Part shown: piece after piece, positions 23,366 to 35,697 of the stretch | Numbering within the stretch: position 1 is the stretch's first letter | Layout of the letters: each line of letters starts with the position of its first letter | DNA from: Escherichia coli | Lineage (GTDB): Bacteria; Pseudomonadota; Gammaproteobacteria; Enterobacterales; Enterobacteriaceae | Length of the DNA stretch: 64,000 bases | Assembly: GCF_022846255.1 (NCBI RefSeq) | Contig: NZ_AP025682.1 | Direction: 5' to 3' (one strand) | The notes under the pieces: generated by a model | Databases searched by the model: none | Seen by the model: the letters and a program-made list of their open reading frames with translations, nothing else | What the model was told of the DNA's origin: nothing | Position numbers and translations under genes: made by a program

Positions 23366-23673
23366 GTTTTTTTCTTCCTGTACCTGTCTGTGTTGTTCAG
23401 GCTCTACGGCCTTTAGTCAGTCTATGATACGACGAATCTGTATCGGGACTCATCGATATTAGGTAACAATACGCGGGATGAATACTAAGATTTAGATCTA
23501 ATGTTAATTTTATGTTTAAAGTGAGTGTCATATCACGGTGATAACGCGAAACAGCTCACAAAAATACACGCTTACAGGGGCTTTGCAACATAAAATAGCG
23601 CCGTTTGGCAAACTGAAGGGTTTATTGCTGAATGCCTGCTCCCCTCTGGTTCGAGGGGAACAGAATGCGCTGC

Positions 23674-24294
23674 TTAGAGGATTTCCAGCAGTTCGACTTC
23701 AAACACCAGGGTGCTGAACGGAGGGATGGACGCGCCTGCGCCACGCTCGCCATATGCCAGTTCCTGCGGGATAGTCAGTTCCCATTTAGAACCTACCGGC
23801 ATCAGAGTCAGTGCTTCAATCCAGCCAGGGATCACGCCGTTAACCGGGAATTCAGCTGGCTCGCCGCGAGCAACGGAGCTGTCAAACACGGTGCCGTCGA
23901 TCAGTTTTCCGGTGTAATGAACACGAACGCGGTCGGTACGTGCCGGAATTGCGCCTTCGCCCTGGTTGATCACGCGGAATTGCAGGCCAGATTCGGTGCT
24001 ATTTACACCTTCTTTTTTGGCGTTTTCTTCCAGGTATTTCACACCTTCAGCAGCCATCGCCTGGAAACGCTGACGACGAACGGCATCGGCGCGTTCGTGG
24101 ATTTCACGCAGCGCGCGGTGCACCACATCAACCGGAACAGCCGGATGTTTGCCTTCCAGCGCATCGGCAATGCCTGCAACCAGAGCTTCTGGCAGCAGCC
24201 CTTCCAGGCCAGATTCACTCAGTTGTTGCCCTACCTGCAAACCAATGCCGTAGCTTGCTTGCGCTTCGATGGTGTCAAAAGTTGGGGTGGTCAT
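23674..24294 (-). CDS. fklB: FKBP-type peptidyl-prolyl cis-trans isomerase FklB
   Basis: 206-aa product from ATG at 24294 ([18 protein letters not shown]...) preceded by AGAAAGGAAA; FKBP domain at C-terminus. Confidence 0.93.
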
Positions 24295-24511
24295 CGTATT
24301 TCCTTTCTTAGGGTATAAAGTAGCGGGCAGCATATCAGCCACACTTCTTTGGGTAAAACTTTGTCGCGGGAATGATGACAAATCCCGGGGAAAAAGAAAC
24401 AATAGCAATATCCCGTATGAATATAATAAAGGCGGGTTTACCACGGACATCATAGCGTTAGCTTATTCATAGGCTATGATTGAGGAACAAGACGCGGAGC
24501 AGGAGGAAACC

Positions 24512-25150
24512 ATGCCCGGGCGCTTTGAACTAAAACCAACCCTGGAGAAAGTCTGGCACGCGCCGGACAATTTTCGCTTCATGGACCCGCTGCCGCCGAT
24601 GCATCGTCGGGGGATCATTATTGCCGCCATTGTATTGGTGGTCGGATTTCTGCTTCCATCTGATGATACGCCCAACGCGCCGGTGGTGACGCGTGAAGCG
24701 CAGTTAGATATTCAGTCGCAATCACAACCACCGACAGAAGAACAGCTGCGGGCGCAATTAGTCACGCCACAAAATGATCCTGATCAGGTGGCTCCGGTCG
24801 CTCCAGAACCAATACAGGAAGGCCAACCAGAAGAGCAGCCGCAAACCACCCATACGCAACCATTCCAGCCAGATAGCGGAATTGATAATCAATGGCGCTC
24901 CTATCGTGTCGAACCCGGTAAAACGATGGCGCAGCTGTTCCGCGACCACGGACTGCCCGCTACCGATGTCTATGCCATGGCGCAGGTAGAAGGCGCGGAT
25001 AAGCCACTGAGTAATTTGCAAAACGGGCAGATGGTGAAAATCCGCCAGAACGCCAGCGGCGTGGTGACGGGCTTAACCATTGATACGGGGAATAATCAAC
25101 AGGTCCTGTTTACCCGCCAGCCGGATGGCAGTTTTATTCGCGCGCGGTAG
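24512..25150 (+). CDS. ytfB: Cell-division-associated OapA-domain protein YtfB
   Basis: 212-aa product from ATG at 24512 ([23 protein letters not shown]...) preceded by AGGAGG; single TM, Pro/Gln-rich linker, C-terminal OapA region. Confidence 0.9.
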
Positions 25151-25781
25151 ATGAAGGGTCAACCAAAAGCCAGCTAAGGATCGTCTCTTTGATGACCTTA
25201 CGTCTGGCTTCCAGTGCCTGCGGTGAAACCATACTGATGTGATAAACCAGACCAAGCGTATGCTGGTTGATCAAATAATATCCCCCAAGCGCAGCAATAT
25301 TAATATTCACCTGCAATGGGTCGATATCTGGCTTAAAAATATTGTTTTTCTTCCCTTCATCCAATAAGGATTCCATTAACTGCAAGTGCGCATGGTTAAT
25401 TTCTAAAAGACGCTGTGACTTTGCATAATGCACACCCTTACTTTGATTTTCACTATGCACAATTTTTAAAAACCAGGGATTAGAAATATAATAATCCCAT
25501 GTAAAATCGATTATTTTCTCAATGGCTTTCTGTGGCGGAAGATCTGAGAAATCAAGGGCCTTTTCTTTTTGTCGAATATCGTTCCAGGTATATTCCAGTA
25601 CTTCGATAAATAAATTTTCTTTATTACCAAAGTGGTGATAAACCGTCTGTTTACTGCACCCCGCGGCCTTGACGATATTATCGACTCTGGCCCCTTCGTA
25701 ACCATATTCGGCAAATTCATTAACCGCGCATAACAGCAGCTTTTCTTTCAGGCTCTGTACGTTGCTGGTATCAAGATACAT
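25134..25781 (-). CDS. ytfA: TetR/AcrR-family transcriptional regulator (intact YtfA), divergent from the downstream operon
   Basis: 215-aa product from ATG at 25781 ([58 protein letters not shown]...) with TetR N-terminal HTH signature; 3' end overlaps ytfB 3' end. Confidence 0.85.
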
Positions 25782-25903
25782 AACGCTTCCCCACGACCTC
25801 TTCGTGGTGACTATCATAACCTGATTTGATTTCAGCTTCAGAAAAAAGGGCAAAAACTTGTACTTTCATCAGGTTATCAAATGTCCTGTGATCGCCATCG
25901 CAT

Positions 25904-25925
25904 ATCAACCAACTAGATGGTTGAT
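25904..25925. promoter_or_regulatory. Candidate TetR-type operator: 8-bp inverted repeat with 6-bp spacer (atcaacca-actaga-tggttgat) in ytfA/operon divergent intergenic region
   Basis: Perfect 8/8 inverted repeat located 69 bp upstream of the SDR gene start and within the ytfA upstream region. Confidence 0.5.
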
Positions 25926-25993
25926 CTTTTTATCCTCCAGTCGCAAGCTAATCATCACTAAGGAAACAAAATTCAAAAAAAGAGAGCTATTGT

Positions 25994-26785
25994 ATGAAAT
26001 CCACTCGTCCTGTTGCCGTGATTACCGGAGCCGCACGTGGTATTGGAAAGGGCTGTGCGCTGGAGCTTGCGCGTGGCGGATTTAATCTGCTGATTAATGA
26101 TCGTCCGGATGCGGATAGCGTAGAAAAATTACATGCCACACAACAAGAATGTCTGGCGGAAGGCGTGGAAGTGATTTGCTTCCCTGCTGATGTGGGCGAT
26201 CTCTCCCTGCATGAAGAGATGCTCGACGCAGCGCAAAACCAGTGGGGACGTCTGGACTGCCTGCTCAACAACGCAGGCATTTCAGTGAAAAAACGCGGTG
26301 ACCTTCTCGACCTCGAACCAGACAGCTTCGACCAAAATATTGCCATTAACACCCGCGCACCGTTCTTCCTTGCTCAGGCATTCAGTAAGCGCTTACTGGC
26401 ACAGCCGAAACCGGAAGCAGAACTGCCGCACCGCTCGATTATTTTCGTCAGTTCCATCAACGCCATCATGCTGGCGATGAATCGCGGCGAATATACCATT
26501 GCCAAAACTGCCGTCTCTGCCGCTGCTCGTCTGTTTGCTGCTCGCCTTTGTAATGAACAAATTGGCGTATATGAAGTGCGTCCTGGTCTCATCAAAACCG
26601 ATATGACTATTCCGGCAACGGCCTATTACGACGAACTGATTGCCAAAGGTCTGGTGCCGTGGGGACGTTGGGGTTATCCGGCTGATATTGCTTCCACTGT
26701 CCGCGCGATGGCGGAAGGTAAACTGATTTACACCTGTGGTCAGGCGGTCGCCATCGACGGCGGCTTAAGTATGCCGCGCTTCTGA
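25994..26785 (+). CDS. Short-chain dehydrogenase/reductase (SDR) family oxidoreductase
   Basis: 263-aa ORF with TGAARGIGKG cofactor-binding motif and YTIAK (YxxxK) catalytic motif. Confidence 0.85.
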   Translation: MKSTRPVAVITGAARGIGKGCALELARGGFNLLINDRPDADSVEKLHATQQECLAEGVEVICFPADVGDLSLHEEMLDAAQNQWGRLDCLLNNAGISVKKRGDLLDLEPDSFDQNIAINTRAPFFLAQAFSKRLLAQPKPEAELPHRSIIFVSSINAIMLAMNRGEYTIAKTAVSAAARLFAARLCNEQIGVYEVRPGLIKTDMTIPATAYYDELIAKGLVPWGRWGYPADIASTVRAMAEGKLIYTCGQAVAIDGGLSMPRF

Positions 26786-26794
26786 GGCTGAATC

Positions 26795-27637
26795 ATGAGA
26801 GATCTGTTACAACGCCCGGATTTATTCAGTATCAATACCGCGACACTGGGCTATAAAACGCCGCTGCCCGCCATTATTGATGCCTGCGCCGCACGCGGTA
26901 TTGGCGCCATTGCCCCCTGGCGCAGGGAGTTGCAGGGTGAAGATCTCCAGCAAATCGCCCGCCAGCTTGCTGCCAGTAACATAAACGTTTCCGGTTTGTG
27001 CCGTAGCACCTACTACACCGCACCGACGCTGGCGGAGCGCAAACTGGTGATTGACGATAACCGCCGGGCGCTGGACGACGCCGCTGTACTGAACGCCGCC
27101 TGTTATATGCAGGTGGTTGGCGGTCTGCCAATGGGAACAAAAGATCTGTACGAAGCACGGGAACAAGTGAAACAAGGGATTCGCCAGTTGCTGCCACATT
27201 CGAAAGAGGTCGGCGTGCCAATTGCACTGGAGCCACTGCACCCGATGACTGCTGCCGATCGTTCTTGTCTGTGCACGTTACGTCAGGCGCTGGACTGGTG
27301 TGATGAACTCGATCCCGATGGCGAATTTGGCCTCGGCGTGGCGGTAGATGTCTACCATGTCTGGTGGGACCCGGATCTCGCCAGTCAGATCCTGCGTGCC
27401 GGAAAACGCATCCTCGCGTTTCATGTTTCCGACTGGTTAGTGCCGACCACCGATCTGGTCAATGACCGTGGAATGCCGGGAGATGGTGTCATCAATATTC
27501 CGTCAATTCGTCGGCTGGTTGAAAACGCCGGATTTAATGGCGCTATTGAACTGGAAATATTCTCACCGTACTGGTGGCAGAAAGATATTAACAGCACGCT
27601 GGATATTAGCGTCGATCGCATCGCACATTATTGTTAA
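26795..27637 (+). CDS. Sugar phosphate isomerase/epimerase (xylose-isomerase-like TIM barrel) family protein
   Basis: 280-aa ORF starting 9 bp after SDR stop, GAGG RBS; family assignment by sequence resemblance to AP-endonuclease-2/TIM-barrel isomerases, moderate certainty. Confidence 0.75.
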   Translation: MRDLLQRPDLFSINTATLGYKTPLPAIIDACAARGIGAIAPWRRELQGEDLQQIARQLAASNINVSGLCRSTYYTAPTLAERKLVIDDNRRALDDAAVLNAACYMQVVGGLPMGTKDLYEAREQVKQGIRQLLPHSKEVGVPIALEPLHPMTAADRSCLCTLRQALDWCDELDPDGEFGLGVAVDVYHVWWDPDLASQILRAGKRILAFHVSDWLVPTTDLVNDRGMPGDGVINIPSIRRLVENAGFNGAIELEIFSPYWWQKDINSTLDISVDRIAHYC

Positions 27638-27646
27638 GGAATAATC

Positions 27647-28423
27647 ATGAGTGACCAACCCGTTCTGTTCAGCAGAGCGGCGGCTTCTTGCCGCCTGACA
27701 TTGAACCGTGAAGATAAATGTCATGCTATTAATGAAGAAATGATCGAATCTCTCGACCATTATTTAAATGAAATTGAAAATGACACGGCATTACGCTTAG
27801 TCGAATTAACGGCAACCGGCGATAAATTCTTTTGTGCGGGCGGCGATATTAAATCGTGGTCGGCCTATTCGCCATTAGATATGGGCAGAAAATGGATTAA
27901 ACGCGGTAATGACGTTTTTAATCGCCTGCGCAACTTACCCCAATTAACCGTTGCGAATCTCAACGGTCATACCATCGGTGGCGGTATTGAACTTGCCTTG
28001 TGCTGCGATATTCGTATCGCTCGCCCCGGCGCGAAATTCTCTAACCCGGAAGTGATGCTCGGCATGGTGCCAGGCTGGATGGGCATTGAGCGAGTGCTTA
28101 ATCAGGTTGGTCCTGTGGTCGGTCGCCAGATGCTGATGCTGGGTAAACGCCTGACGGCGCAGGAAGCTCAGACAGCGAATTTAATTGATGAAGTGGTAGA
28201 AAAAGAACAGGTGGAAAGCTGGATGGCGAACCAGTTAGCGCAGCTGGAAAAATGTGGTCCGGTGGCACTGGCACATATTAAGCAACTGATTCTGGCGCTG
28301 GAAAATAAACACGCCGATTACTCCCACCAGTTACTGGCTGGATTAATGTCCGCCACTCAGGATTGCCAACAGGCGACGCACGCATTTGCCGAAAAAGCCG
28401 GCGTGAGCTTCCACAATCAATAA
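27647..28423 (+). CDS. Enoyl-CoA hydratase/isomerase (crotonase-fold) family protein
   Basis: 258-aa ORF with crotonase motifs (FCAGGDIK; NGHTIGGGIELALCCDIRIA); AAGGA RBS. Confidence 0.85.
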   Translation: MSDQPVLFSRAAASCRLTLNREDKCHAINEEMIESLDHYLNEIENDTALRLVELTATGDKFFCAGGDIKSWSAYSPLDMGRKWIKRGNDVFNRLRNLPQLTVANLNGHTIGGGIELALCCDIRIARPGAKFSNPEVMLGMVPGWMGIERVLNQVGPVVGRQMLMLGKRLTAQEAQTANLIDEVVEKEQVESWMANQLAQLEKCGPVALAHIKQLILALENKHADYSHQLLAGLMSATQDCQQATHAFAEKAGVSFHNQ

Positions 28424-28432
28424 GGAAATTGT

Positions 28433-29974
28433 ATGCGTAAGTTATCAACCGCCGAGACACTGGCGGCGCAAATTCAGGACGGCGCAACCATTGCCATTAG
28501 CGGCAACGGCGGCGGTATGGTGGAAGCTGACCATATTCTGGCCGCCATTGAAGCGCGCTTTCTGCAAACCGGACACCCGCGCGATCTGACATTAATCCAC
28601 TCGCTGGGTATTGGCGATCGCGACAGCAAAGGCACTAACCGTTTTGCTCACGCCGAAATGCTCAAACGCATTATTGCCGGACATTTTACCTGGTCGCCCA
28701 AGATGCAGGAACTGGTGAAAAGCAATGCTATTGAAGCCTACTGTTTCCCTGGTGGCGTAATTCAGGCACTGCTGCGGGAGATCGGTGCCGGACGTCCGGG
28801 GCTTTTTACCCACGTTGGGCTGGGATCGTTTGTTGATCCACGCAATGGTGGCGGTAAGTCGAATGAATGCACTACCGACGACCTGGTAGAACTGATTGAA
28901 ATCGACGGTGAGACCAAACTTCGTTATCGCCCTTTCAAAGTGGACTACGCGATTTTGCGCGGCACCTATGCCGATCCGCGTGGCAACGTCAGCCTCGAAG
29001 AAGAGGCGATTGATATGGATAGCTATTCGATGGCGCTGGCAGCACACAACAGCGGCGGCAAAGTGTTCGTACAGGTCCGCGATGTGCTGGAAGCAGGTAC
29101 CATTGAACCACGTCGGGTCAAACTACCAGGAATTCTGGTCGATGGCATCGTTGAGCACCGCGAACAACCGCAAACCTATCTTGGTGGTTACGACCTGACG
29201 ATCAGCGGTCAACATCGCCGTCTAAGTTCTAACGACGCTATTGAACTGGTTAGTCATCCGGTGCGTCGCCTGATTGCCCGTCGGGCAGCGCGGGAACTGG
29301 TGGCAGGCGCTTCAACCAACTTTGGCTTTGGTATTCCCGGCGGTATTCCTGGGGTTGCACTGCGCGAAGGCGTGCCTTATCAAAGTTTGTGGCTGAGTGT
29401 AGAACAGGGTGTACATAACGGCATGATGCTGGATGATGCTCTGTTCGGCTGCGCCCGTAACGCCGATGCCATTATTCCATCACTCGATCAATTCGAATTC
29501 TACAGTGGCGGCGGTATCGATATCACCTTCCTCGGCATGGGAGAGATGGATCGGTACGGTAACGTCAACGTATCCCATCTCAATGGCAATCTCATTGGCC
29601 CCGGCGGCTTCCTCGAAATTGCGCAAAACGCCCGTAAAGTGGTGTTCTGCGGTACGTTTGACGCCAAAGGCAGCAAGATTGATGTAACGCCTGATGGCCT
29701 GCATATCGCCCAGTCAGGTCAAATCCCCAAACTGGTTACCCAGGTGGAAAAAATTACTTTTAGCGCCGCATACGCACAGCAAAGCAGTCAGGAAGTGCTG
29801 TATATCACCGAACGTGCGGTATTCCAGTTAACGGCAGAAGGCGTTGAATTAATTGAGATCGCCCCTGGCGTAGAGATTGACCGCGACATTCTGCCGTATA
29901 TGGCCTTCCGTCCGATTATCAGGCACCCACGCCTGATGGAAAGTAGCCTGTTTACGCCAATGGAGGATGCATGA
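28433..29974 (+). CDS. Family I CoA-transferase, fused alpha/beta type (YdiF-like acyl-CoA:acetate CoA-transferase)
   Basis: 513-aa ORF with glycine-rich N-terminus (ATIAISGNGGGMVEADHIL), resembles E. coli YdiF-type short-chain acyl-CoA transferases; AAGGA RBS. Confidence 0.8.
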   Translation: MRKLSTAETLAAQIQDGATIAISGNGGGMVEADHILAAIEARFLQTGHPRDLTLIHSLGIGDRDSKGTNRFAHAEMLKRIIAGHFTWSPKMQELVKSNAIEAYCFPGGVIQALLREIGAGRPGLFTHVGLGSFVDPRNGGGKSNECTTDDLVELIEIDGETKLRYRPFKVDYAILRGTYADPRGNVSLEEEAIDMDSYSMALAAHNSGGKVFVQVRDVLEAGTIEPRRVKLPGILVDGIVEHREQPQTYLGGYDLTISGQHRRLSSNDAIELVSHPVRRLIARRAARELVAGASTNFGFGIPGGIPGVALREGVPYQSLWLSVEQGVHNGMMLDDALFGCARNADAIIPSLDQFEFYSGGGIDITFLGMGEMDRYGNVNVSHLNGNLIGPGGFLEIAQNARKVVFCGTFDAKGSKIDVTPDGLHIAQSGQIPKLVTQVEKITFSAAYAQQSSQEVLYITERAVFQLTAEGVELIEIAPGVEIDRDILPYMAFRPIIRHPRLMESSLFTPMEDA

Positions 29975-32043
29975 GTCAGCTTGATGAGGCCATCCTTGAT
30001 GCACTGACACACGTTACTTTCCCAAAGGGTTTTGCACAGGCAGAACCCGCATGGGTTGTCACGGTAGACGGTGTTGATTACCCACTCTGGAAAACAGATG
30101 CCCTGGTAGTCGGCAGTGGTGCAGCCGGGCTACGTGCAGCTGTGGAACTTAAACGCCGCCAGCAAAATGTGTTAATCGCCACCGCCGGGTTATATATGGG
30201 GACATCGGCATGTTCTGGCTCTGATAAACAAACACTGTTTACCGCCGCTACCGCGGGCAACGGCGACAACTTCGCCAAACTGGCAGAGGCACTGGCGAGC
30301 GGTGGGGCGATGGATCACGACACCGCTTATGTTGAAGCGGTAGGTTCTCTGCACACTCTTGGCGGGTTGCAATATCTTGGTCTGGAATTACCGGAAGATC
30401 GCTATGGCGCGATTCTTCGTTATCAAACCGACCATGACGAAGCCGGGCGTGCAACCTCGTGTGGGCCGCGTACCTCAAGGTTAATGGTGAAAGTGCTGCT
30501 GGAAGAAGTACAGCGTCTTGCTATCCCAATGTTGGCCAGTGCAACAGTGATTAAACTGCTGCATCAGCGTGACGAAAACGGTGAAGACCGTGTGGCGGGG
30601 GCAATCCTCGCGACCGGTCATCGCGCCCATAACCCATGGGGGCTGGCAATTGTGACTGCGCCCAATGTGGTACTGGCAACAGGCGGGCCTGGCGAGCTTT
30701 ATCGCGACAGTGTGTATCCACACAAATGTTTCGGCTCGCTGGGGCTGGCGCTGGAGGAAGGTCTGACGTTAACGAATCTGACTGAAAGCCAGTTTGGTAT
30801 AGGCACACCGCGCAGCACGTTTCCGTGGAATTTGTCCGGCACCTATGTACAGGTGATCCCATATATCTATTCCGTGGATGCCGGGGGCAACGAGTATAAC
30901 TTCCTCGCGGATTACTATCGCACCACCCAGGAGCTGGCTTCAAACATTTTCCGTAAAGGCTATCAGTGGCCGTTCCACGCCACGCGGGTAATGGATTTTG
31001 GCTCCAGCTTGTTAGATATGGCAGTAGCGCAAGAGCAGCAACATGGTCGTCAGGTATTTATGGATTTCAATCGTAATCCAGAACCTGTGCCGGGTGACCT
31101 ACCGTTCTCATTAGATCGACTGGACGACGACGTTCGCGCGTATCTGGAAAATAACGACGCTCTGGCACCATCGCCCATCGAACGCCTGCAACAAATGAAT
31201 CCTCTGTCTATCTCGCTGTATAAGATGCACGGTTACGATCTCATCACGCAGCCATTGCAGTTTGCCATGAATAATCAGCACATGAATGGCGGCATTGAAG
31301 TCGATATCTGGGGACAAACATCTCTGCCCGGTTGTTTTGCGGTGGGGGAAGTTGCTGGCACACACGGCGTCACCCGACCTGGCGGCGCGGCGTTGAATGC
31401 CGGGCAGGTTTTTGCTGTTCGTCTGGCGCGCTTTATTGGTTGCACGCAAAAGCGGAATATTGATGGAGATATTGCACAGCTGGCAGCTCCGGCACTGGCT
31501 TCTATAAGAGAGATCATTACTCAGGCGCACGATAACGGGTCCGGGATGCCGTTGTCGGTTGTGAGAGAAAAAATTCAGGCACGAATGTCTGACTATGCGG
31601 GATTTATTTGCCATGCCGATAAAGTCCGACGTGCCACTCGTGATGCCCTGCTATTGAACGAATTTGTCCAACGACATGGATTGGCAATCAAACATGTGGG
31701 TGAAGTTGCCGAGCTGTTTATGTGGCGGCATATGGCGCTGACTTCTGCCGCGGTATTAACACAATTAACGCATTATATTGATGCTGGTGGTGGTAGCCGT
31801 GGGGCGCGTATGGTTATTGATCCACAAGGCAAATGCCTACCACAAACTCGTCGCGGCGCAAAAGAAGAATGGCGTTTTCGCTCTGAACTCGCTGAAGACA
31901 AAAATCACAAATTAACAATTCAATATTCGCAAGGTTCTTTTATTACCGAAGTAAAGTCTTTACGTATGCAACCGTGTATTAACGGTATTTACTTTGAAAA
32001 AAACTGGCCAGACTTTTTAAAGGGAGACATTTACACACAATAA
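29971..32043 (+). CDS. FAD-dependent oxidoreductase, fumarate reductase/succinate dehydrogenase/L-aspartate oxidase flavoprotein superfamily, with long C-terminal extension
   Basis: 690-aa ORF; dinucleotide-binding motif (DALVVGSGAAGLRAAVEL) and C-terminal FAD-binding signature (CFAVGEVAGTHGVTRPGGAALNAGQVF); start ATG overlaps upstream stop (ATGA); GGAGG RBS. Confidence 0.8.
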   Translation: MSQLDEAILDALTHVTFPKGFAQAEPAWVVTVDGVDYPLWKTDALVVGSGAAGLRAAVELKRRQQNVLIATAGLYMGTSACSGSDKQTLFTAATAGNGDNFAKLAEALASGGAMDHDTAYVEAVGSLHTLGGLQYLGLELPEDRYGAILRYQTDHDEAGRATSCGPRTSRLMVKVLLEEVQRLAIPMLASATVIKLLHQRDENGEDRVAGAILATGHRAHNPWGLAIVTAPNVVLATGGPGELYRDSVYPHKCFGSLGLALEEGLTLTNLTESQFGIGTPRSTFPWNLSGTYVQVIPYIYSVDAGGNEYNFLADYYRTTQELASNIFRKGYQWPFHATRVMDFGSSLLDMAVAQEQQHGRQVFMDFNRNPEPVPGDLPFSLDRLDDDVRAYLENNDALAPSPIERLQQMNPLSISLYKMHGYDLITQPLQFAMNNQHMNGGIEVDIWGQTSLPGCFAVGEVAGTHGVTRPGGAALNAGQVFAVRLARFIGCTQKRNIDGDIAQLAAPALASIREIITQAHDNGSGMPLSVVREKIQARMSDYAGFICHADKVRRATRDALLLNEFVQRHGLAIKHVGEVAELFMWRHMALTSAAVLTQLTHYIDAGGGSRGARMVIDPQGKCLPQTRRGAKEEWRFRSELAEDKNHKLTIQYSQGSFITEVKSLRMQPCINGIYFEKNWPDFLKGDIYTQ

Positions 32044-32135
32044 TTTTCAATATTTCCTCTGTACCTGATTTTTATTGCCTATTACATGGAAATACCAACA
32101 ACCAGGGTTTATTAATATAATTAAAAGGTTTAAAA

Positions 32136-33413
32136 ATGAATAAAATAAAGAATTATCGATGGCATATGATTGCCCTCGTATGCTTTATCACTGTAATCAA
32201 TTATCTGGACAGAACGGCGTTAGGTATTGCGGCTCCAACGATTATGGAGACAACCGGAATAACCAAAGAACAATATTCATGGATTGTCAGTGCATTCCAG
32301 TTGGCCTATACATTGGGGCAACCGATAATGGGCTTCTTTATTGATACCGTGGGTCTGAAGTTAAGTTTTGCGATATGTGCCGCAATCTGGGGCCTGGCGA
32401 CAATGGGGCATGCCTTGACAGGAACATGGTCAGGTCTGGCATTTATGCGCGCCCTGATGGGTTTCAGCGAAGCATCGGCAATTCCTGCGGGTGTAAAAAC
32501 CGCATCAACATGGTTCCCGGCAAAAGAGCGTGGCGTGGCGACAGGTGTATTCAATATGGGTACCTCACTCGGCGCGATGCTTGCTCCACCGTTGATTGCC
32601 TGGTGCATTATGTTTCATAGCTGGCAATTTGCGTTTATTGTCTCAGGTAGCCTTGCTTTACTCGCGGCTTTATTTTGGTTCTTTTGTTATAAAGATCCAA
32701 AAGATGCTAAACGCCTTTCTGATGAAGAGCGCCACTATATTGAGTCTGGGCAAGAACAGCATCTTAAAACAGATAAGAAAGAAAAAACGTCAATCAAGCA
32801 TATCCTCAGCCAACGTAATTTCTGGGGGATTGGCATCGCGCGTTTTCTCGCTGACCCGGCATGGGGAACCATTAACTTCTGGGTACCGATTTTCTTCGTC
32901 GAAACGCTGCATTTTAGCCTGAAAGAAATTGCCATGTTCGTCTGGCTGCCTTTCCTGCTGGGCGATCTCGGCTGTTTAGCCAGTGGTTTTGTCGCGAAGT
33001 TCTTCCACGATCGCGGCGTGAGTTTAATTAACTCACGAAGAATTACCTTCACTATTGCAGCCGTCATTATGATGACGATTGGTCTGGTGAGTATTGTCGA
33101 AAATCCCTACATCGCCGTATTACTGATTAGCATTGGCGCATTCTCGCATCAATGTCTTTCTACTGTTGCAGCAACTCTGGGCGGTGACCTATTCAAAAAA
33201 GACGAAGTAGCTACCGCTGTGGGTATGGCAGGAGCCTGTGCATGGAGCGGTCAGTTGATTTTCAACCTGTTTATCGGGGCATTCGTTCACATTATTGGCT
33301 TCGCGCCGTTCTTTATTGCCCTGGCTTTCTTTGACATTATTGGCGCCATTGCGCTGTGGATGCTTATCAAAGTTAAAGACGAAGAACCACAAGTACAGTT
33401 AGCGACAAGCTAA
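32136..33413 (+). CDS. MFS transporter, anion:cation symporter (ACS) family (hexuronate/aldonate-type)
   Basis: 425-aa 12-TM ORF with MFS signature (YLDRTALGIAAP; GxLxDRxG-like loop), resembles ExuT/DgoT-type organic anion permeases. Confidence 0.85.
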   Translation: MNKIKNYRWHMIALVCFITVINYLDRTALGIAAPTIMETTGITKEQYSWIVSAFQLAYTLGQPIMGFFIDTVGLKLSFAICAAIWGLATMGHALTGTWSGLAFMRALMGFSEASAIPAGVKTASTWFPAKERGVATGVFNMGTSLGAMLAPPLIAWCIMFHSWQFAFIVSGSLALLAALFWFFCYKDPKDAKRLSDEERHYIESGQEQHLKTDKKEKTSIKHILSQRNFWGIGIARFLADPAWGTINFWVPIFFVETLHFSLKEIAMFVWLPFLLGDLGCLASGFVAKFFHDRGVSLINSRRITFTIAAVIMMTIGLVSIVENPYIAVLLISIGAFSHQCLSTVAATLGGDLFKKDEVATAVGMAGACAWSGQLIFNLFIGAFVHIIGFAPFFIALAFFDIIGAIALWMLIKVKDEEPQVQLATS

Positions 33414-33422
33414 TTATTTTAC

Positions 33423-33464
33423 ATAGAAACGCTATAATTTAGCTTTGTAGCGTTTCTATTTTTC
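33423..33464 (+). terminator. Rho-independent terminator after MFS transporter gene (possibly bidirectional)
   Basis: Perfect 11-bp stem atagaaacgct ... agcgtttctat followed by tttttct. Confidence 0.6.
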
Positions 33465-33555
33465 TCATAAATTAAACGTCTCTTCCAAAACGTTCAGTAT
33501 CTACTGGCATTGCTTCGCAAATTTATGATTTAGCGAATATATCTAAATAACTATT

Positions 33556-34824
33556 CTAAATTGCCCCCCTGAACGCCTCTGCCATTAACTCTTGCTCACG
33601 ACCAGGTAATCGAAGACGCTCGGCAATGATTCGCCACTGACTGACAATCCCTCTAAAATTAGCAATAATGTCATCTGCTTCTGTCAAACCAAGTCGAAAA
33701 TAATCCACAACTTCTCGAGCTAATTCCAAATCAAGTGCATTATCATTTTCTGTAATATTGAGTTTTAGACCGTCAGACCTGGCAACAGGATTCAAATCAT
33801 ATGCCTCAGAAAGCCGCCAACCTTTTCCCGGTATCAAGATATATCCATGATTACGTAAATGGTCATCGGTATTAGAAACAAGAATATTAAAAACAATCCT
33901 GGACCAGAGTTCCTTAAGGTCAGTATTAGTCTGCGCTCCATGTCTGATAAGAACATCTGCTAATTCCAGATAACTCACACCTGTAGAGGCATCTTCACCA
34001 TCCTGATGCCTGGTTAGTGTCATAGCCGAAGCAAAATGCAGACGCCTTCCCGCATTAGTGCGGTCAAAACGACGAACCATAAAACAATGGTAATTGCTGG
34101 CAAATTTATGCGCCTGAGCAGGTGCAACATTCAGTCCACAGCCAACAGCAAGTGCATTAACGACCATTTCCCATCCACCAACATCATACTCATCTTTTAC
34201 ACTGGGAAATTTAGCGATGTAGAGATACCCAGCTTCATCAACAACACTGGCTTTCGGACGTGTCCCCCCTAATGATCCCCCCGGAGCGATTAGCATTCTT
34301 AACCATTTTTGCCCCATTAGCTCTTTATTATCAGGATCTTCTTCAATTGCCCGGCTAGCCCTTTCCAGACTCGCTATTTCGGTAAATGGTGGGGCTGCAA
34401 CATCAATGCGATTATCAAGAAACTCTCCAGCGTCTTCACGTTTGTATCGAAGAGCCCCAACCCGATAAAGATCATGAACACCTAGTAGATAATCAGACTC
34501 ATAAAGGTGGGAGTCTTTATCACATAACCCGTCTCGAATATCCCTCTCAAAACGACGCTTCATTAGCATACGCCCCCAACGATCCGGGCAGGAATCACTA
34601 AATGCACCAAATTTATCCTTTGGAGGAATTGGGTACTGTGCTCCCTCATACAACATTATTTCAGGATCTAACTGAATGAAATTAAGTGAAGGATCTGCAA
34701 GCGCCTTTTTATCGTACTCAAACTCAAATATCTCACGCGTCCGAGTGCGGCGACTGTGTAAATAACCAATCCGCTCCGGACCATCCAGGCCTTCCCAATC
34801 CGCATACACTCCGATTAATGCCAT
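33556..34824 (-). CDS. HipA-family serine/threonine kinase (type II toxin-antitoxin toxin candidate)
   Basis: 422-aa ORF; HipA N-terminal motif (FSDSCPDRWGRMLMKRR resembles HipA FDNLLPDSPIVRDRIVKRY), glycine-rich loop (IAPGGSLGGTRPKASVV), catalytic motif (LVSNTDDHLRNHGYIL); AAGGAAA RBS; starts 2 nt after upstream HTH gene stop. Confidence 0.85.
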   Translation of the reverse strand: MALIGVYADWEGLDGPERIGYLHSRRTRTREIFEFEYDKKALADPSLNFIQLDPEIMLYEGAQYPIPPKDKFGAFSDSCPDRWGRMLMKRRFERDIRDGLCDKDSHLYESDYLLGVHDLYRVGALRYKREDAGEFLDNRIDVAAPPFTEIASLERASRAIEEDPDNKELMGQKWLRMLIAPGGSLGGTRPKASVVDEAGYLYIAKFPSVKDEYDVGGWEMVVNALAVGCGLNVAPAQAHKFASNYHCFMVRRFDRTNAGRRLHFASAMTLTRHQDGEDASTGVSYLELADVLIRHGAQTNTDLKELWSRIVFNILVSNTDDHLRNHGYILIPGKGWRLSEAYDLNPVARSDGLKLNITENDNALDLELAREVVDYFRLGLTEADDIIANFRGIVSQWRIIAERLRLPGREQELMAEAFRGAI

Positions 34825-34826
34825 AA

Positions 34827-35318
34827 TTAATTTCCTTTTAACGGTTTTTTTATCGGTTTTAATAGTGCTGCAAGAGAGGTTGATGTTTCTCCTGTAATAG
34901 ATGGCGTTGAGCCTTCTGCCAGTGCTGTTAAATCCGTGGTGAGTAAACCTTCTTTCTCATACCTCGTTTGAAAAGGGTCTGTCTGAATACCTTCTTCATT
35001 TTTACCTGATGAACGAGAAAGCCCTCTTTTTTTAATCAAACGGGAATCCTGGAGCTGACGCCCTAAGTCGTCTTCAGCTGCAAGCTTATTTAAATCCGTT
35101 TCCAGGCCCAAAACCTGCATCACAGACAAATATGCCCCTATCGTGACCCCTGCACTTCCTGACTCCAGAGAGCGCAATGTTATTGGCGACATCCCAGCAC
35201 GTTCAGCAACTTGCTTTGCGGTAAGCCTGCGTCGTAAACGAGCAAGTTTCAGCCGCTCACCAAATTCACTAAGCATCTGATTCGTATAAGGGAGTAACGG
35301 TGCTGTTTTTTTACCCAT
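34827..35318 (-). CDS. XRE-family HTH protein, HipB-like antitoxin candidate with ~90-aa Ser/Thr-rich C-terminal extension
   Basis: 163-aa ORF; HTH_XRE region ([32 protein letters not shown]); immediately upstream of and co-oriented with the HipA-like gene; no clear SD at the first ATG, alternative start at Met15 (35276) possible. Confidence 0.75.
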
Positions 35319-35338
35319 AGTGATAATATTTTATCTTT

Positions 35339-35359
35339 TTATGGCTATGATAGCCATAA
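35339..35359. promoter_or_regulatory. Candidate operator: perfect 10-1-10 palindrome ttatggctat-g-atagccataa upstream of HipB-like gene
   Basis: Perfect inverted repeat 21-41 bp upstream of the HTH gene start codon in an AT-rich promoter region. Confidence 0.55.
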
Positions 35360-35664
35360 TATTAGCATTTATTGGATTGAACGCACCTGCAAAGCGTTCA
35401 AGATTACGAAAGTGATGATATTTTATCCTTTTATATATAAAAACAATAAAATAACAGCGCATTCATATATAACATATTGTTTTTATTATCATACAAGGGA
35501 GACGATCGCTGTATTGATGCTTTTGTCGTGTTTTACGCGTAAAAAACATGACACGAACTACCAGCGGCGAGGCTGGGGGCCAGGTATGGGTACTGCGAAC
35601 TTTTTATAAAAGGAATAACAAGAGATTTATGGAGGGAACGTCTGTTTCTGCGGTTTTTATCACT

Positions 35665-35697
35665 TAAAAGCAAAACGCCGACCACTGGTCGGCGTTT
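35665..35697 (-). terminator. Rho-independent terminator of rpsF-priB-rpsR-rplI operon
   Basis: Stem aacgccgacca/tggtcggcgtt followed on the minus strand by ttttgctttt, 23 bp downstream of rplI stop. Confidence 0.75.

Follow-up and report, generated by a model that had tools for sequence, protein, structure and literature searches.

A stretch of 64,000 nucleotides from the Escherichia coli genome (contig NZ_AP025682.1 of assembly GCF_022846255.1), hereafter termed the window, harbors a compact operon of six co-directional genes (25994-33413) that is preceded by a divergent TetR gene (Table 1). The fifth gene encodes a flavoprotein of 690 amino acids (aa), which is a partner-less member of the fold shared by succinate dehydrogenase (SdhA), fumarate reductase (FrdA) and L-aspartate oxidase (NadB), carries no assigned reaction, and is embedded in an operon that also contains coenzyme A (CoA) enzymes. 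Soluble relatives of this textbook fold have recently been found to reduce various substrates other than fumarate. The present protein belongs to a branch of about 400 clusters with a rebuilt pocket and no assigned reaction, which extends over E. coli, Klebsiella, Salmonella, rhizobia, marine Rhodobacteraceae, Planctomycetes, Verrucomicrobia and gut Firmicutes, and the elucidation of its substrate would name a new enzyme activity.

Table 1. Coordinates of the operon features in the window, with the basis of each assignment.
Feature	Position	Strand	Basis
TetR/AcrR-family regulator, 215-aa RefSeq coding sequence (CDS)	25134..25781	-	open reading frame (ORF); WP_001298021.1 in strain 536
22-bp palindrome ATCAACCAACT/AGATGGTTGAT, intergenic between the TetR and SDR genes	25904..25925		11-nt arms, 91% complementary, no spacer
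Short-chain dehydrogenase/reductase (SDR), PRK12745 type, 263 aa	25994..26785	+	NCBIfam NF009386, 420 bits vs cut-off 250
Xylose-isomerase-like TIM barrel (AP_endonuc_2), 280 aa	26795..27637	+	Pfam AP_endonuc_2 on orthologues
Enoyl-CoA hydratase (crotonase), 258 aa	27647..28423	+	NCBIfam crotonase families, 1e-44 and below
Family I CoA-transferase (YdiF/FadX type), 513 aa	28433..29974	+	PDB 2AHU (E. coli YdiF), E 5e-114
Flavoprotein, stand-alone SdhA/FrdA/NadB fold, remodelled capping domain, 690 aa	29971..32043	+	ORF, RefSeq, Pfam, profile and fold comparison
Major facilitator superfamily (MFS) transporter, anion:cation symporter (ACS) family, 425 aa	32136..33413	+	NCBIfam TIGR00893, 314 bits vs cut-off 395
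Intrinsic-terminator-like hairpin at the operon end, 15-bp stem then T-run	33423..33459	+	terminator scan

The ATG of the flavoprotein gene shares the tetranucleotide ATGA with the TGA stop of the upstream CoA-transferase gene, as the original prediction made from this sequence had stated, and a GGAGGA Shine-Dalgarno element located 5 nt upstream of the ATG constitutes a strong ribosome-binding site. The two flavin adenine dinucleotide (FAD)-binding signatures of the succinate dehydrogenase/fumarate reductase/L-aspartate oxidase superfamily, which had been noticed in the same prediction, were recovered as well, and both GSGAAG (residues 48-53), in the N-terminal dinucleotide fold, and the C-terminal motif GEVAGTHGVTRPGG align to NadB and FrdA. 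Of the two domains anticipated, FAD_binding_2 (PF00890) was found at residues 43-475 (E 1e-24) and is the sole Pfam domain of the protein, whereas the succinate dehydrogenase C-terminal domain (Succ_DH_flav_C) gave no hit even at E<=10, and no Pfam match at all fell on the C-terminal 215 residues.

This missing match explains the earlier impression of a C-terminal extension of about 200 residues. An AlphaFold model of the protein, built on 40 family members, was confident (pLDDT 92.7), and in Foldseek it matched SdhA/FrdA chains over the whole length (E about 1e-32, 650-700 columns). In the profile alignment, residues 2-541 of E. coli FrdA are paired with residues 38-621 of the flavoprotein (probability 99.3), and the 'ESRGAH' of the FrdA helical domain stands opposite the family-invariant S609-R610-G611. 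The supposed extension is the ordinary helical plus C-terminal domain of the superfamily, which is recognised by profile and fold comparison and is invisible to Pfam; with its FAD, capping and helical domains and C-terminal region, the protein is structurally a member of the SdhA/FrdA/NadB/AprA superfamily. Nor is it unusually large, as had been supposed, since FrdA comprises 602 aa, the matched SdhA/FrdA chains reach 655 residues, and the members of its own family are uniformly 620-700 aa long. The identical 690-aa CDS is annotated in RefSeq for E. coli strain 536 ('FAD-dependent oxidoreductase', WP_000080375.1), to which this region of the window is 99.2% identical, and together with thousands of relatives of 620-700 aa it demonstrates that the length is not an annotation artefact. 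The N-terminal lead-in, estimated earlier at about 35 aa, is real and amounts to 37 aa; it is predicted to form a helix plus a β-hairpin, and across four phyla its residues I8, L9, L12, T13, V15 and P18 do not vary.

No curated NCBIfam family claims the flavoprotein, and its scores against the SdhA/FrdA/NadB/TfrA models are 5- to 20-fold below the cut-offs. The best score was obtained with TfrA (124 bits vs 718), followed by the NadB model TIGR00551 (99 vs 453), the SdhA/FrdA model TIGR01812 (83 vs 567) and PRK09231 (44 vs 854). The nearest solved sequence is NadB (E 1e-8), and the identity to solved superfamily members is 15-21%. The solved relatives listed from the PDB included urocanate reductase, cyclohexanone dehydrogenase and ketosteroid dehydrogenases; in sequence and fold the protein is no closer to TcuA (tricarballylate dehydrogenase) or KstD (3-ketosteroid dehydrogenase), two well-characterised subfamilies to which it might have been assigned, than to SdhA/NadB.

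The active site combines conserved and lost residues. H44 of FrdA, which bears the covalent 8α-N3-histidyl FAD, aligns to G77/S79, and no histidine occurs in the corresponding residues 75-81 (YMGTSAC), which points to non-covalently bound FAD. H355 and R390 of FrdA (H351 and R386 of NadB) correspond to the invariant H437 and R469, while H232 of FrdA ('QYHPT'; H244 in NadB, 'QFHPT') corresponds to G276, which is invariant in 40 sequences. The proton donor R287 of FrdA lies opposite S345, at a predicted helix N-terminus where the alignment is of low confidence, and the capping domain is not alignable to NadB by sequence; the proton-donor arginine is probably replaced by S345, and the invariant K329 is a candidate proton donor. 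Besides these residues, the family invariants include G48, G50, S79, S84, D85 and T88, and those of the capping domain comprise S289, G290, Y292, G330, W333, P334, S346 and D349, in addition to K329 and S345. In soluble FAD_binding_2 reductases, Bertsova et al. described a conserved His/Arg group that binds one carboxylate and a histidine equivalent to H232 that binds the other, whose replacement accompanies the switch from fumarate to a monocarboxylic enoate (acrylate) (bioRxiv 10.1101/2022.01.20.477176). Taken with these published roles, the retention of H437/R469 and the loss of the H232 equivalent imply that the family most likely binds one carboxylate, with something other than a carboxylate at the opposite end.

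In comparison with NadB (PDB 1KNR, 1CHU and 2E5V), the flavoprotein shows about 21% identity, has glycine in place of H244 and probably serine in place of R290, is extended by the 37-aa hairpin at its N-terminus, has a C-terminal β-subdomain of greater length, and resides in a catabolic context rather than in NAD biosynthesis. With FrdA/SdhA of complex II (PDB 1KF6, 1NEK and 8DYD; 15-18% identity) it has in common the 'SRG' of the helical domain and an architecture of four parts that extends across the full length, but it has no histidine for 8α-histidyl FAD, lacks two of the four residues that bind the dicarboxylate or act in catalysis, and has no FrdB, SdhB or anchor genes nearby. No Fe-S, haem or membrane-anchor gene was detected among the ORFs of 25.1-33.5 kb, as had already been remarked of Fe-S and heme partners, and no redox partner is encoded in the E. 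coli operon. A further parallel is provided by the soluble FAD_binding_2 enoate reductases, namely Klebsiella NADH:fumarate reductase, Vibrio harveyi acrylate reductase ARD and urocanate reductase (PDB 6T85), with which the flavoprotein would share non-covalent FAD and does share the kept His/Arg motif and the replaced second-carboxylate histidine. Unlike the NADH-dependent members of that group, the E. coli protein contains neither an old yellow enzyme (OYE)-like nor an FMN_bind domain by Pfam, although its relatives adjoin or are fused with OYE domains. Because FAD_binding_2 enzymes acting on enoates other than fumarate are already known, acrylate reductase among them (bioRxiv 10.1101/2022.01.20.477176), the earlier description of an unusual use of this fold was overstated.

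An exhaustive sequence search across 1.84 billion representatives (E<=1e-30) delineated a family of 411 clusters at 50% identity, nearly all of them full length. Scanning one genome per species disclosed more than 590 flavoprotein loci, and the 80 that were kept are distributed over Enterobacterales, Rhizobiales, Rhodobacterales, Planctomycetota, Verrucomicrobiota/Lentisphaerota, Bacillota, Desulfobacterales and others; relatives in AFDB include gut Clostridia and an Asgard archaeon. A fold search of AFDB50 returned only unnamed 'FAD-binding protein' relatives. The names of the homologues are generic, with some termed 'succinate dehydrogenase flavoprotein subunit' or 'L-aspartate oxidase', and the database names of all six operon proteins are generic as well. 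Full-text literature searches retrieved nothing on the family or the operon and furnished analogies only (Anaerostipes OxcT/EcdH, Vibrio acrylate reductase).

The other products of the operon provide the metabolic setting. The TetR gene, whose ORF as called mechanically reaches 25853, has orthologues in Klebsiella and Salmonella that contain Pfam TetR_N and TetR_C_29, and the intergenic palindrome, also scored as a stem by the terminator scan, is a candidate TetR operator. The closest PDB entries of the SDR (4DA9 and 4ONE/5VN2) originate from structural genomics and have no assigned function; likewise, those of the TIM barrel (3QC0/3JU2, which is SMc04130 of S. meliloti, E 7e-85; 7VPF, 2e-61) have no stated function. 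The matches of the TIM barrel in NCBIfam are weak only (IolO, hydroxypyruvate isomerase and others), a PADLOC search with it was empty, and by type it would be a metal-dependent isomerase, epimerase or β-eliminase. Solving the operon would consequently annotate both the PRK12745 SDR and the SMc04130-type TIM barrel, each of which has orphan crystal structures. The hydratase holds both catalytic-glutamate motifs (GGGIEL and NPEVMLG) and best matches the 3-hydroxypropionyl-CoA dehydratase 5ZAI in the PDB (4e-40), while E324 of the CoA-transferase, which scores 381 bits against NCBIfam FadX and thus falls under the cut-off, aligns to the catalytic Glu333 of YdiF and is kept; these conserved glutamates indicate that a thioester intermediate exists in the pathway of the window operon. 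The MFS transporter resembles hexuronate and galactonate transporters, and in one source it bears the name 'ACS family hexuronate transporter-like'.

The genomic neighborhoods of relatives were surveyed by clustering the ORFs within 8 kb at about 75 non-Escherichia loci and naming the clusters by NCBIfam. The most constant partner across phyla is the PRK12745-type SDR, which was found at 27 loci of many phyla and often directly adjoins the flavoprotein gene; the SDR neighbor in Subdoligranulum also passes NF009386. A pair of glucose-methanol-choline (GMC) oxidoreductases occurs with a CUT1 sugar ATP-binding cassette (ABC) system at about 20 loci in alpha-proteobacteria, a KdgK-like PfkB kinase at 17 (directly downstream of the flavoprotein in most), a levoglucosan-dehydrogenase-like Gfo/Idh/MocA protein at 15 (directly upstream), and Eda-type aldolases and OYE or OYE-GltD proteins at 13 each; TIM barrels of the type in the window were counted at 8 or more loci, and a second TIM type occurs elsewhere. 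A Lentisphaeria genome carries a bare four-gene cassette of TIM barrel, Gfo, SDR and flavoprotein amid the housekeeping genes tig, clpPX and ksgA, whereas the Subdoligranulum locus reads LacI, TIM barrel, OYE, zinc alcohol dehydrogenase (ZnADH), SDR and flavoprotein beside an IlvD-type sugar-acid dehydratase. In a plasmid operon of Rhizobium that is annotated in full, the order is LacI, Gfo, CoA-transferase, enoyl-CoA hydratase, aldehyde dehydrogenase and sugar ABC, followed by GMC, GMC, Gfo, flavoprotein and sugar kinase; the binding protein encoded there belongs to the glucose-binding type (4R2B, E 1e-165), and the Gfo is nearest to levoglucosan and scyllo-inositol/L-glucose dehydrogenases. 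Moreover, in a metagenomic protein of 1084 aa (P0149) an OYE-type Oxidored_FMN domain, which covers residues 34-240 and beyond, is naturally fused to a full member of the flavoprotein family, and no FMN_bind lies between the two, unlike the known NADH:fumarate and NADH:acrylate reductases. The SDR, Gfo, KdgK, Eda and sugar-ABC neighbors indicate that the family is embedded in the catabolism of sugars, sugar acids or cyclitols. Within Planctomycetota, loci L072, L075, L052, L061 and L079 share a conserved block of UvrA, OYE-GltD fusion, SDR, Eda, a secreted 512-aa protein that has no NCBIfam name, flavoprotein, KdgK-like kinase and MtnA. A class I fructose-bisphosphate aldolase gene, probably a housekeeping one, adjoins the Rhizobium operon.

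From the remodelled pocket and these contexts, it is tentatively proposed, with limited confidence, that the flavoprotein is a cytoplasmic C=C oxidoreductase of the enoate type, which would hold FAD non-covalently and act on a free monocarboxylate resembling a hydroxylated sugar acid or cyclitol acid. The acid would enter Escherichia, Klebsiella and Salmonella via the MFS anion transporter, the SDR or a Gfo/Idh/MocA dehydrogenase would convert a hydroxyl to a ketone, and the TIM barrel, with its metal, would enolise, epimerise or β-eliminate. The flavoprotein, as the flavin step in an 'oxidise, eliminate, reduce' sequence, would reduce (or in reverse introduce) a double bond in conjugation with the carboxylate that H437/R469 bind. 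The resulting acid may then be taken by the YdiF-type CoA-transferase and the enoyl-CoA hydratase; precedent for such a CoA branch is offered by the OxcT/EcdH pair of Anaerostipes, which handles 3-oxopropionate downstream of inositol catabolism (PMC8355322). The TetR repressor would control the operon, and in anaerobes the adjoining or fused OYE protein probably supplies electrons from NAD(P)H. The same functional classes (SDR, flavoprotein, dehydratase, CoA-transferase and MFS transporter) are assembled in the bai-type operon, which is responsible for the reductive dehydroxylation of a hydroxy acid; the two systems diverge in the folds of the dehydratase, of the transferase (type III there, family I here) and, for the most part, of the flavoproteins, and there is no evidence of a bile-acid substrate for the window operon.

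Several more specific substrates were considered. Quinate/shikimate-type hydroaromatic acids are suggested by the PcaK-like transporter of Brenneria, but such acids are at odds with the KdgK/Eda contexts and with the binding protein of the glucose type, and variants of myo- or scyllo-inositol were set aside because the IolG-, IolM-, IolO- and IolC-like neighbors are all far under the family cut-offs. For lack of evidence, ketogluconates and unsaturated uronates were not adopted, and neither were 3-oxopropionate and acrylate, at which the hydratase match to 3-hydroxypropionyl-CoA dehydratase hints.

The original prediction had suggested an enoate or enoyl-CoA reductase or dehydrogenase that acts on the CoA-activated substrate. 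The flavoprotein would then be an enoyl-CoA reductase or acyl-CoA α,β-dehydrogenase, working on the thioester made by the transferase. This appears unlikely on the present evidence, and it is similarly doubtful that the hydratase and a FabG-like SDR complete a β-oxidation-like cycle for the imported acid. The idea draws on the ATGA coupling to a CoA-transferase that is apparently active, to judge from its kept catalytic glutamate, on the intact glutamate motifs of the hydratase, on the nearest named families of the SDR, which are 3-oxoacyl reductases, and on the recurrence of the CoA-transferase and hydratase near the flavoprotein in a minority of lineages, namely the Rhizobium plasmid operon, Rhodobacter/Rubellimicrobium (Rhodobacteraceae), Devosia and a Desulfobacterales genome. 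Against it stand the many lineages in which the SDR-flavoprotein pair, usually with the TIM barrel, occurs without CoA genes. The relatives of 57-59% identity in Brenneria, Pseudescherichia, Mangrovibacter and Phytobacter are located in SDR-(Gfo)-TIM-flavoprotein-MFS operons, and no CoA enzyme is encoded within 8-10 kb of the flavoprotein gene in these four genera or in the Lentisphaeria genome, whose flavoprotein falls in the same identity range; most other lineages examined likewise have no CoA genes near it. The alpha-proteobacterial flavoprotein is packed between the Gfo/Idh/MocA dehydrogenase and the sugar kinase and lies some 10 kb away from the CoA genes, with the Rhizobium pair situated about 11 kb upstream and hence beyond the first 10-kb flanks that were inspected. 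Furthermore, the Desulfobacterales locus has acyl-CoA dehydrogenases of its own, and the kept His/Arg pair binds free carboxylate in FrdA and NadB. Comparison of SDR-TIM-flavoprotein-MFS in Brenneria with SDR-TIM-[hydratase-transferase]-flavoprotein-MFS in Escherichia makes it look as though the CoA pair had been inserted, as a module, into a core of greater age. The thioester reading is thus probably wrong, and the substrate is more probably the free acid, with the CoA enzymes acting on its product or on a side-branch.

A second alternative regards the flavoprotein as a NadB-like dehydrogenase or oxidase of a C-O or C-N bond next to the carboxylate, which would pass electrons to O2, a quinone or fumarate. 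Its substrates might be an aldonic acid, from which the 2-keto acid would be formed, a sugar acid with a 2-amino group or a compound with an ether adjacent to the carboxylate. We consider it improbable, since an oxidase hardly suits a family that is common in strict anaerobes (Clostridia, Phycisphaerae, Desulfobacterales and the Asgard archaeon), the repeated adjacency or fusion concerns OYE-type NAD(P)H-flavin proteins, which feed electrons to reductases in known systems, and the substrate residues H244 and R290 of NadB are not kept. The reading as a true fumarate reductase of the soluble kind, as a succinate dehydrogenase flavoprotein or as a paralogue of L-aspartate oxidase, which only the names of some homologues and the overall fold recommend, is extremely improbable and effectively refuted by the sequence, given the low NCBIfam scores and identities, the invariant glycine (G276) in place of the second-carboxylate histidine, the probable loss of the proton-donor arginine, the missing covalent-FAD histidine and the missing Fe-S partner gene.

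Several points weigh against the proposed free-acid enoate chemistry. No characterised family member was present in any library searched, and this sequence-based analysis identified no substrate. As R287 is absent, the chemistry could differ, either as a NadB-like C-O/C-N oxidation or as a non-redox role; the low-confidence pairing of S345 with R287 means that the loss of the proton donor is itself not secure. The CoA pair occurs with the flavoprotein in at least four unrelated arrangements, adjoining or in the same operon, and the Escherichia operon lacks only a desaturase for a β-oxidation-like set, both of which would fit a thioester. In addition, the transporter types (ACS, AAHS-type MFS, sugar ABC) vary from one relative to another, which may reflect different substrates among family members, and the gene calls in the high-GC loci are crude.

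On a broader scale, it is conceivable, though rather unlikely, that the SDR, the TIM barrel and the FrdA-like flavoprotein form the core of a widespread and undescribed catabolic route, by which a common acid of the sugar or cyclitol type would be deoxygenated or rearranged, with Gfo and OYE as variable components. It would feed KdgK/Eda in many phyla and the CoA branch in Enterobacteriaceae and Rhizobiales, and would be ancestral to Escherichia, Klebsiella and Salmonella. If this holds true, the trait escaped study because K-12 deleted it.

The same seven genes occupy the same site between ytfB and rplI in Klebsiella oxytoca and Salmonella enterica. The enzymes are 87-93% identical to those of E. 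coli, the flavoprotein only 78-79% and the transporter 51%, and this shared content, site and degree of identity indicate that the locus is ancestral rather than a recent island. In K-12 MG1655, yjfZ stands in place of positions 25537-35666 of the window (about 10.1 kb, covering the operon and a downstream hipA/helix-turn-helix (HTH) pair). Of the TetR gene, the 3' 402 bp persist there as the pseudogene ytfA, with 98% identity as far as the breakpoint; K-12 has thus deleted the operon. At least 80% of the operon is carried by 1660 of 5426 complete E. coli genomes (roughly 30%), and it possibly explains a metabolic difference among E. coli lineages. With a compact TetR-controlled operon in a tractable species and K-12 as a natural deletion background, both substrate and chemistry are directly testable.

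The E. coli alleles of the flavoprotein (87-92% identity overall) are near-identical up to about residue 495 and sharply divergent over the C-terminal ~190 residues, and the GC content falls from about 54% to 39-47% from about 31.4 kb onward (~31400-33413 of the window). Together with the 51% identity of the transporter, these features point to a recombination breakpoint in the 3' third of the flavoprotein gene and suggest that recombination there replaced the transporter. In some E. coli records the CoA-transferase and flavoprotein are fused in a single ORF (P0005, 1078 aa, with 11 member sequences; P0030, 1043 aa) that carries Pfam CoA_trans and FAD_binding_2, presumably owing to a frame change at the ATGA junction. 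Long antisense ORFs lie inside the flavoprotein gene (31111-31614, 167 aa, and 30551-30943, 130 aa, both on the minus strand), and another ORF (23632-24318, plus strand, 228 aa) lies opposite fklB; having no annotation support, they have most probably arisen by chance. Between the operon and rplI, the window contains an intact HipA-family toxin ORF (33556-34824, minus strand, 422 aa) with its HTH partner (34827-35318, minus strand, 163 aa), of which the hipA homologue in strain 536 is annotated as frameshifted, and an EamA transporter gene takes the place of this pair in Klebsiella and Salmonella.

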